DNA of 64,000 nucleotides, from NCBI GenBank assembly GCA_965228475.1, contig OZ245817.1:608001-672000 (forward strand), given 5' to 3'. Positions 61,800 to 64,000 of the stretch are shown piece by piece (within the stretch, counting starts at the first letter, position 1; each line of letters starts with the position of its first letter). The translations under genes were made by a program, and so were the position numbers. A model generated the notes under the pieces. It did not search any database. It was given only the letters and a program-made list of their open reading frames with translations, and was not told where the DNA came from. This stretch comes from Myxococcota bacterium (GTDB taxonomy: Bacteria > Myxococcota_A > UBA9160 > JAFDDA01).

Positions 61800-63683
61800 A
61801 TGAGCGAGCACGACTCCGAGAATGGACGCAGAGGTTTCGTCCGCGACGTGATGCGACGCATCACGCCGGCCAACCCGCGCGGAGAGGATTCTCCGGCGGA
61901 GGGCGGCGCGGAAGAAATCCAGGACGTGGAAGACGCGCGCTTCGCCGGCGCTGCGGGTTCGCGCCGCGACTACGCTCAAGAGGCCGATGACCTTCGGGAC
62001 GCCATGCGCTTCTTCGGCAGCGACTCCGCCGAATTCCGACGCCGCCTCGACCGCCTGATGGCCGAGTTCGAAGCGCTGCGACGCCGCTACGAGCTCGCGC
62101 GCGATCAGCACACGGACGCCGAGCGCCAGAACGAGAAGCTCGTCGCCACGCTGCAGGAAGCGAAGCAGCAGATCGAGCTGCTCAAGGAAGAGGTCGACAA
62201 GCTGTGCGCACCGCCGAACAGCTACGGCGTCTTCCAGCGCGCGAACAAGGACGGCACGGCCGAGATCGTCGTCGACGGCAAGGCCATGCGCGTCAACGTG
62301 CACCCGAACCTCGATCCGCACCAGATCCTGGAAGGCCAGCTCTGCGTGCTGAACGAAGCCTTCAACATCGTGGAGCCCGCGGGCTATACCCAGCGCGGCG
62401 AGATCTCGACGATCTCGGAGCTCCTGGGCGACGGCCGCGCCGTCGTGCTCGGCCACACCGACGACGAGCGCGTCGTCACCCTGGCCGACCCGCTGCGCCA
62501 CGAGAAGCTGAAGGTCGGCGACAACCTGCTCGTCGATCCGCGCACCCAGTACGCCTTCGAGAAGATGCCGAAGTCGGCCGTCGAAGAGGTGGTGCTGGAA
62601 GAAGTGCCGGACGTGACCTACGAGCGCATCGGTGGGCTCGAGGAGCAGATCGAGGTCCTGCGCGACTCCGTCGAGCTGCCCTACACGCACCCCGAGGTGT
62701 TCGCCGAGCACCAGCTCTCGCCGCCGAAGGGCATCCTGCTCTACGGGCCTCCCGGCTGCGGCAAGACGCTGATCGCCAAGGCGGTCGCCAACAGCCTCGC
62801 CAAGAGCATCGAGGCCCGCACGGGCCGTGCCACGCCGGCGTACTTCTTGAACGTGAAGGGGCCCGAGCTCCTGAACAAGTACGTGGGTGAGACCGAGCAC
62901 AAGATCCGCGAGGTCTTCAAGAAGGCGCGGGAGAAGGCGAGCGAAGAGGTCCCGGTGGTGATCTTCTTCGACGAGATGGACTCGCTGTTCCGCATGCGCG
63001 GCTCGGGCGTCTCCTCGGACATGGAGGCCACGGTGGTGGCGCAGTTCCTGTCCGAGATCGACGGCGTCGAGTCCCTGAAGAACGTGATCGTGATCGGTGC
63101 CTCGAACCGTCAGGACCTGATCGACCCGGCCGTGCTGCGGCCTGGCCGGCTCGACCTGAAGGTCAAGGTGCAGCGGCCCGACGCCGAGGCGGCGCGCTCG
63201 ATCTTCCAGAAGTACCTCACGGCGGACCTGCCCTTCCACGCGGAAGCGCAGGAACAGTACGGGAGCGACGCCCAGAAGATCGTCGATGGCGTGATCAACG
63301 AGACCGTCGATCGCATGTACAGCACCGAGGAGGAGAACAAGTTCCTCGAGGTGACGTACGCCAAGGGCGAGCGCGAGATCTTCTACTTCAAGGACTTCTC
63401 GAGCGGCGCGATGATCGAGAACATCGTGGCCCGCGCGAAGAAGATGGCCGTGAAGCGGATGATCGATCACGAGGAACGCGGCATCAAAGCCGAGGACCTG
63501 ATCGAGGCCGTCAACGCGGAGTTCAAGGAGAACGAAGATCTCCCGAACACCACGAACCCGGACGACTGGGCCCGCATCTCGGGCAAGAAGGGCGAGCGCA
63601 TCATCAACGTCCGCACGATGATGACCGGCATCAGCCGCAAGGAGCGCTCGATCGAGAACGTGAGTTCGGGTCAGTATCTCTAG
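61800..63683 (+). CDS. arc: proteasome-associated AAA+ ATPase ARC/Mpa
   Basis: Coiled coil followed by [57 protein letters not shown]; C-terminal GQYL; GAGGAG RBS. Confidence 0.95.
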   Translation: [627 protein letters not shown]

Positions 63684-63697
63684 CACGGCGTTTCGAA

Positions 63698-63760
63698 CGC
63701 ACCGGAAGACCGTGATGCACACGATCTTCCGGTGCGGCGCCGGCCGCCTCGGATGCGGCC
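63698..63760 (+). other. intercistronic hairpins between arc and dop
   Basis: CGCACCGGAAGA/TCTTCCGGTGCG 12-bp stem plus CGTG/CACG; then GGCCGC/GCGGCC. Confidence 0.6.
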
Positions 63761-63837
63761 TTGGGAAAAGGCACTATCCTCAAGGTCCGCGTTTCTCGAC
63801 GGTTTTCGGGCGACTGGCGCGGACGCACGGGGGTTGA

Positions 63838-64000
63838 ATGGCCATTCCGAAGGTCATGGGTACGGAGATCGAGTTCGGCATCACGGTCCAGAACGACCGC
63901 GATTTCGACCCCATCTCGAGCTGCGTCCTACTCGTCAACGCCTACCGCGAAGAGCACGACGCGAAGATCCTCTGGGACTACGACCAGGAGAACCCGCTCG
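63838..64000 (+). CDS. dop: Pup deamidase/depupylase Dop (PafA family), 3'-truncated by window edge
   Basis: MAIPKVMGTEIEFGI...LLVNAY...WDYDQENPL: the GxExE motif plus the WDY..ENPL Dop-loop; directly after arc. Confidence 0.82.
   Translation, partial: MAIPKVMGTEIEFGITVQNDRDFDPISSCVLLVNAYREEHDAKILWDYDQENPL

Follow-up and report, generated by a model that had tools for sequence, protein, structure and literature searches.

A Pup-proteasome operon in one class of Myxococcota, with a candidate sigma54 promoter upstream of arc

The operon and its products

The end of a 64,000-nucleotide stretch of the genome of a Myxococcota bacterium (G000:C1:608001-672000, the whole of which is here called the window; window position equals genome position minus 608000) was found to enter an operon for Pup tagging and proteasomal degradation. 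The operon runs 4.7 kb beyond the window end and consists of six genes on one strand. To judge from its sequence it is a complete and intact arc-dop-pup-prcB-prcA-pafA system. The genes are given below, in window positions or, with the prefix C1, in genome positions.

61800..63683, + strand: arc (mpa), proteasome ATPase, an open reading frame (ORF) of 627 aa starting with ATG, identified by profile and structure matches
63838..64000, + strand: 5′-end of dop (depupylase/deamidase, 495 aa, TIGR03688), the whole gene being at C1:671838-673325
C1:673383-673583, + strand: pup, 66 aa, C-terminus NYVQRGGE, above the TIGR03687 and PF05639 cut-offs
C1:673655-674452, + strand: prcB, a 49-aa propeptide followed by PHG/TT, NCBIfam match
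C1:674455-675153, + strand: prcA, NCBIfam match
C1:675258-676664, + strand: pafA, 468 aa with a class-invariant 14-aa tail, NCBIfam match

All six proteins scored above their NCBIfam cut-offs, and Pfam was in agreement. ARC reached 746 bits with TIGR03689 (cut-off 504.75), the full 495-aa Dop 586 bits (492), Pup 57.5 bits (41.5), PrcB 280 bits (192), PrcA 312 bits (139) and PafA 555.5 bits (551.3). Dop and PafA are two paralogues, each above the cut-off of its own model and below that of the other. The ARC product bears the signatures [29 protein letters not shown] and is laid out as a basic amphipathic N-terminal motif (residues 10-22), a coiled coil, two OB domains, an AAA+ domain and a terminal GQYL. 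Its closest solved structure is the Mpa entry 7PX9 (E 7e-196), in which GQYL lines up with GQYL. Solved relatives (Mpa, Dop, PafA, Pup and bacterial beta subunits) aligned across the active-site stretches, and the mature solved beta chains start at PrcB query residue 50. The Asp of PafA aligned to a position occupied by Asp in 4B0T and by Asn in 4BJR, the latter presumably an inactivating mutant. The entries 7PX9, 4B0R, 3M9D, 2H6J and 4B0T are taken by us to come from Mycobacterium, Rhodococcus, Acidothermus and Corynebacterium.

The motifs were followed through 55 loci of the class to which the organism belongs, consisting of G000 and 54 relatives' loci that had been selected for carrying the operon on long contigs. 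The Walker A, Walker B, sensor and Arg-finger motifs of ARC were present in all 55, as was YVDHAHPEYS of Dop, whereas YQDTGCHPEYA of PafA was kept in 50/51 loci and [HE]GTT of PrcB in 51/54. ARC ended in GQYL/V in 54/55 loci. Pup ended in RGGE in 36 loci and in RGGQ in 18, and was cut off in one; on a 48-row tree the E/Q ending switched at least 9 times, which would therefore point to a working deamidase throughout the class. A search of 10 kb with Rfam gave no structured RNA in either the leader or the operon, and 2 intrinsic terminators were found, compared with 4.8 expected by chance.

A first, sequence-only reading of the window had recognised an AAA+ ATPase with ARC/Mpa signatures ending in GQYL followed by a Dop-type N-terminus, and had predicted a modifier, prcB, prcA and pafA downstream. 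Both identifications hold for the full-length proteins, and every predicted gene was found intact. That reading had left the choice between Pup and UBact open, and here only the first half stood. UBact is reportedly a small acidic modifier, described by Lehmann et al. 2017 with its ligase and proteasome in Gram-negative bacteria, and its C-terminus is R[S/T]G[E/Q]. The modifier of G000 fits the Pup models and gave no match to the UBact model NF033388, by which a UBact modifier was ruled out. The same model gave a match in 0/81 class genomes, with the control positive in 3/5 genomes.

The host was likewise as that reading had supposed, a diderm of Myxococcota affinity. The genome is a single 5.0-Mb contig of 70.5% GC and 96% completeness, in which the diderm markers BamA and LpxC scored above their cut-offs. 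Among 120 RpoB matches, the three that bear an organism name are all labelled Myxococcota bacterium (80-81%), and the named PafA matches at 80% or above are labelled Myxococcota, Myxococcales, Deltaproteobacteria or 'bacterium'. The class is tentatively taken to be UBA9160 (Vahlivitia), on account of its two orders and of the classes listed in a 2026 preprint (bioRxiv 10.64898/2026.07.10.737566).

Distribution, chromosomal position and descent

Within the phylum sample (n = 401), prcA was detected in 74/78 genomes of the class and in 0/323 genomes outside it. PrcB was found in 175/201 class genomes, Pup in 96/101, and ARC above its cut-off in 37/41 genomes of the order. Pup ligases were present in 76/78 class genomes, with weak matches in 10/323 other genomes of the phylum. 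These counts describe samples of genomes in which kin are not independent. HslU was present in 71/81 class genomes and HslV is intact in G000; in the genus g25 (G028, G067, G075, G083, G109) HslU was not found in 5/5 genomes and Pup was seen in four. The co-occurrence with HslUV was considered as a surprise and dropped, since proteasome homologues often co-occur according to the available parts of PMC8665760 and PMC5666114. A search for Bpa/PafE was positive in 0/81 class genomes and in 3/3 actinobacterial control genomes.

The gene order was colinear in 55/55 loci, and prcB and prcA lay within the operon in 54/55, wherever the locus reaches them. Four extra regions with second copies or fragments were excluded from this count. 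Upstream of arc are two conserved neighbours outside the operon:

57597..60080, + strand: ftsK-like DNA translocase, best match NF007615, below cut-off
60179..61003, + strand: lolA, TIGR00547 123 bits against a cut-off of 112

The pair ftsK-lolA, from which the sequence-only reading had taken its ordinary chromosomal context, precedes arc in 52/54 relatives, and the other two loci stop at a contig end. The operon is a core trait of one Myxococcota class, kept at one chromosomal place.

Directly downstream of pafA in G000 is an AglB/STT3-like oligosaccharyltransferase gene (C1:676697-678994, L001:7697-9994; TIGR04154 296 bits, below cut-off). Its GC content at third codon positions (GC3) is lower, at 0.81, and as a neighbour it was not seen in the class regions L193-L212 except for one weak 48-residue match. 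Second arc-dop(-pafA) sets of 30-35% identity were seen at L203:6815-11917 (G016:C42) and L205:1733-5283 (G093:C161). These divergent sets are below all cut-offs, with an ARC that lacks GQYL and no prc genes in the stretch examined; L205 also holds a small ORF ending in QHGGE with no NCBIfam family match.

Codon use in the operon is host-like, as had been claimed. GC3 is 0.91-0.97 in arc, dop, prcB, prcA and pafA and 0.81 in pup, as against 0.95-0.96 in ftsK, recA and rpoB. Total GC falls to 0.645 at 62001-64000, compared with about 0.71; the lower value is close to the 0.66 of rpoB. No mobility genes were noticed on reading the ORF lists, one of which was read in part, and no systematic scan for mobile elements was run. 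The gap between lolA and arc was spanned by single contigs in 4/4 sequencing runs examined, by which a chimeric junction was ruled out. Two of the bridging runs, X2 and X4, showed 0 differences, X1 may be the source, and X5 represents a different strain (39 differences in 3.5 kb).

The descent of the operon was traced in trees from which P0082, P0089 and P0092 were excluded, as they resembled assembly chimeras. A five-protein FastTree of 72 rows included 48/55 class loci (7 incomplete ones dropped), 10 other diderms and 14/32 complete actinobacterial loci. In it the class, both orders and 7/7 host families with at least two rows formed single clades with support 100. The PafA tree (57 rows, IQ-TREE quick, rooted with Dop) joined the class in one clade with Entotheonellia- and Nitrospinota-labelled proteins, again with support 100. 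One clade of class and actinobacterial PafA was rejected by the approximately unbiased (AU) test (p 4.8e-42), so that in the comparison with actinobacterial loci proposed earlier the class stands apart by its PafA. The deeper branching is poorly resolved, the Dop and PafA trees disagree there, and the outgroups that bear names, drawn from 2 of 64 parts of the contig collection, form a thin sample. Identity of PafA to that of G000 was 84-91% in five paired genomes, where RpoB was 72-81%.

The spread of the operon across the class, its fixed synteny and the match between its tree and taxonomy agree with the earlier view of a long-resident system, and the operon has likely been inherited vertically from the ancestor of the class. 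The simplest reading of its origin is one gain in that ancestor from another diderm; alternatively, the other lineages of the phylum may have lost the operon, or all diderm loci may go back to an ancient source in Actinobacteria. A direct and recent horizontal transfer from Actinobacteria, or a chimeric assembly, would account for the actinobacterial-type gene order, the GQYL and GGE signatures and the failure to find the operon in the rest of the phylum, and transfer from Actinobacteria has been proposed for Gram-negative proteasomes in the available parts of PMC5666114 and PMC3511204. It is nevertheless very improbable: against it stand the AU test, the Entotheonellia- and Nitrospinota-labelled nearest relatives of PafA, the agreement of tree and taxonomy, the host-like codon use and the bridged lolA-arc junction, and its 'recent' and 'chimeric' versions are already largely refuted. 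The operon may have been transferred long ago into a diderm that was the common donor; the actinobacterial sample here is 14 sequences, mostly Acidimicrobiia.

Promoter-like sites upstream of arc

Two promoter-like sites lie in the intergenic region between lolA and arc:

61722..61737, + strand: sigma54 -24/-12 promoter-like site, GG-N10-GC, beginning 78 nt 5′ of the arc ATG
61415..61442, + strand: sigma70-type promoter-like site, TTGACA-16-TAGCTT, about 300 nt 5′ of the sigma54 site

With at most 2 mismatches the sigma54 site was detected in 51/53 class intergenic regions, and with 3 mismatches in 53/53; on the reverse strand the count was 0, and in shuffled sequences the mean was 1.8 and the maximum 7. 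The sigma70-type site was found in 43/53 loci (reverse strand 1, shuffles mean 2.1), and the copy at 61415..61442 was missed by a stricter scan. G000 encodes RpoN and 21 sigma54 activator domains. The strict sigma54 motif had 29 matches genome-wide and preceded flgF, flgB, two amt, a pilA-like and a gspH-like gene (6/7 downstream genes, hand-picked). Genes of these kinds are typical sigma54 targets.

Two more sites of this kind were seen elsewhere in the genome. One, at C1:1418008, is 78 nt 5′ of lpxC and suggests that lipid A synthesis belongs to the same regulon. Another is in the window at 784-799 (genome 608784), before an ORF at about 879-1226 for a small Lys-rich histone-like protein of 116 aa.

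Outside the class, a sigma54 site preceded arc in 20/22 loci of Rokubacteria relatives (1/23 dropped as truncated), a group in which ARC scored above its cut-off in 23/26 genomes. Their site is near-perfect and about 225-410 nt 5′ of the aligned arc start (L268-L290). A sigma54 site was found in 0/24 usable loci of the sister clade of Entotheonellia/Nitrospinota type (80 fetched), in 0/7 loci of Nitrospirota, 0/4 of Poribacteria and 1/34 of Actinomycetota. The two lineages with the site are not neighbours in the PafA tree, and it was therefore presumably gained twice or lost in between.

The operon is likely transcribed from the sigma54 promoter together with the distal sigma70-type promoter. 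A functional operon driven only by the distal promoter, with a sigma54 site that is repressive, fine-tuning or unused, would fit the conservation of the sigma70-type site, the failure to find an enhancer or an integration host factor (IHF) site between the two and the lack of a sigma54 site in the nearest sister operons. We consider this unlikely, since the sigma54 site is the better conserved of the two, is held at a near-fixed spacing to the start codon and recurs 5′ of arc in the Rokubacteria relatives.

Comparison with known systems and significance

With the actinobacterial Pup-proteasome the operon shares the six proteins, their order, the active-site motifs, the GQYL tail and the GG[E/Q] tag. 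It differs by its diderm Myxococcota host, the sigma54-type site, the retention of HslUV and the failure to find Bpa/PafE in the class, as well as by the invariant PafA tail and the N-terminal ARC motif. No pafBC-like genes were seen beside pafA, where the AglB/STT3-like gene is found instead. The loci of Nitrospirota (Leptospirillum, Nitrospira), Methylomirabilota/Rokubacteria and Poribacteria also have diderm hosts and the order arc-dop-(pup)-prcB-prcA-pafA, and the Rokubacteria relatives have the sigma54 site in common with the class, but these loci are about 40-60% identical and form separate branches, and the ARC of Nitrospirota ends in GHYL/F. In L087, L089-L094, L106 and L145 (Rokubacteria, Nitrospira) pup was not found in the dop-prcB interval or recognised anywhere else in the loci; a UBact gene was present elsewhere in 3/4 Nitrospirota genomes. 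Closest is the Entotheonellia/Nitrospinota-type operon, with the same six-gene order, a Pup ending in [NS]YVQRGG[E/Q], an ARC ending in GQYL, the common N-terminal ARC motif and a PafA that is 60-66% identical and in the joint clade. It differs by the missing sigma54 site, another PafA tail and other phylum labels.

Myxobacteria are also known for a solitary membrane Pup ligase of the Plesiocystis type, which according to the available part of PMC2588565 has a transmembrane insertion and occurs without proteasome genes; PafA and Dop of G000 have no hydrophobic insertion. The weak ligase matches in the other classes fit the Plesiocystis type, as 5/5 of those examined were solitary and had 2-3 hydrophobic segments. 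Of these five ligases (L213-L217), three are directly preceded by a small ORF ending in GGE, unrecognised in the one NCBIfam test.

By analogy with the actinobacterial homologues (PMC3511204, as far as available), PafA would use ATP to link the terminal glutamate of Pup to lysines of substrates. Dop would mainly be an eraser of Pup in G000, because Pup is encoded there as GGE, and also a deamidase in the GGQ-encoding relatives. The coiled coil of ARC would capture Pup, and ARC would unfold the substrate and feed it into the PrcA/PrcB barrel docked by GQYL, in which the N-terminal Thr of PrcB would have been freed through cleavage of the propeptide. One of the 21 sigma54 activators might gate expression on a signal, which is the weakest step of the scheme. 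Nitrogen or nutrient limitation is the leading but tentative candidate for that signal, held at less than even odds; envelope stress or a lifestyle switch are the alternatives.

The lineage carries two further marks. The PafA tail, NLR[KR][TA]SLSKLVIQS, was matched in 49/51 loci; the PafA model had a mean predicted local distance difference test (pLDDT) score of 77 with the tail (455-468) and residues 413-440 below 50, and it says little on the tail. The basic amphipathic motif of ARC (window 61827-61865) was found by a strict pattern in 38/49 loci (6 skipped), has a hydrophobic moment of 0.64, is common to the Entotheonellia/Nitrospinota-type clade and was not seen in the aligned actinobacterial rows. 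It may resemble membrane-targeting helices.

Pupylation could be mainly regulatory. ARC would then take apart or remodel complexes that bear the tag, perhaps on the inner membrane, and the part of the 20S core would be secondary. The amphipathic motif would fit such a role, PafA is far more conserved than PrcA and PrcB (50-68% identity), and for proteasome-less actinobacteria non-degradative pupylation has been suggested in the available part of PMC3511204. We regard this as distinctly unlikely: prcB and prcA are retained in the operon with the catalytic Thr, ARC retains its GQYL/V ending, and the moment of the motif is not above that of coiled-coil windows of the same protein.

We therefore prefer an intact, class-wide six-gene operon, likely vertically inherited, that would tag proteins with Pup for ATP-driven destruction and be expressed from sigma54 and sigma70-type promoters, and give this reading as a whole a probability of roughly 85%. 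Several points weigh against it. The activity and expression of the operon are here predicted from its sequence; four metatranscriptomes with 5-9% of words gave short, divergent fragments only and no evidence for this organism. PafA exceeds its cut-off by 4 bits only, the synteny counts are not from a random sample, and, as HslUV is also present, the job of the operon is not obvious from missing other proteases. On the side of the promoter, the shuffles preserve base but not dinucleotide content, a weak AT-rich motif was all that a Gibbs search for an enhancer 5′ of the sigma54 site returned, and palindromes were at shuffle level. IHF sites were found in 0/53 class loci and NtrC-like sites in only 10/53, the latter counting against a simple NtrC/nitrogen reading.

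The machinery is canonical and its chemistry is not new; Gram-negative Pup-proteasome loci are already published (PMC2588565, PMC5666114). A report of 2008 described Pup conjugation beyond the Actinobacteria, including a deltaproteobacterial case without proteasome genes (PMC2588565, as far as available). The available part of PMC5666114 lists proteasomes in Actinobacteria, Nitrospirae, Armatimonadetes and Verrucomicrobia, with transfer from Actinobacteria as the preferred explanation; there and in the corresponding part of PMC3511204 the bacterial proteasome is described as limited to Actinobacteria plus sporadic transferred cases. Frequent co-occurrence of proteasome homologues is the theme of the part of PMC8665760 available. 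In the literature searched, outside which most subscription papers lie, no proteasome operon or sigma54 control was described for the class and no paper paired pupylation with Myxococcota. COG3484 is, we presume, a family different from this proteasome. It is the sole proteasome-type protease mentioned in the available part of PMC12316311, by which Actinomycetota are effectively without RpoN. The main text, as available, of a 2026 Myxococcota preprint that covers the class name UBA9160 (Vahlivitia; bioRxiv 10.64898/2026.07.10.737566) contains neither proteasome nor pupylation, PMC11354881 has a single passing mention only, and PMC7203096 mentions UBact and pupylation outside the part available and may bear on novelty. 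What was found is a known system in a host group new to it, under a kind of control that is likely new. Sigma54 control of a Pup-proteasome operon would likely be new, because Actinobacteria are without sigma54.

A wider and more doubtful proposal is that diderms possess an old Pup-proteasome branch of their own that did not come directly from Actinobacteria, that sigma54 enhancer control arose separately in at least two phyla (in this Myxococcota class and in Rokubacteria), and that in this class the ARC helix and PafA tail couple tagging and degradation to the inner membrane, or else to some partner that mycobacteria are not known to have. If true, this would make proteasomal degradation a signal-gated programme. 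The operon is kept at one place in about 95% of the sampled class genomes, and its ligase is more conserved than RpoB; this shows that it can be a core system in a Gram-negative lineage, one that has retained HslUV as well. The position of the operon away from the actinobacterial branch bears on where bacterial proteasomes arose, and sigma54 control, should it be real, is impossible in Actinobacteria and would tie targeted proteolysis to enhancer-type signalling.

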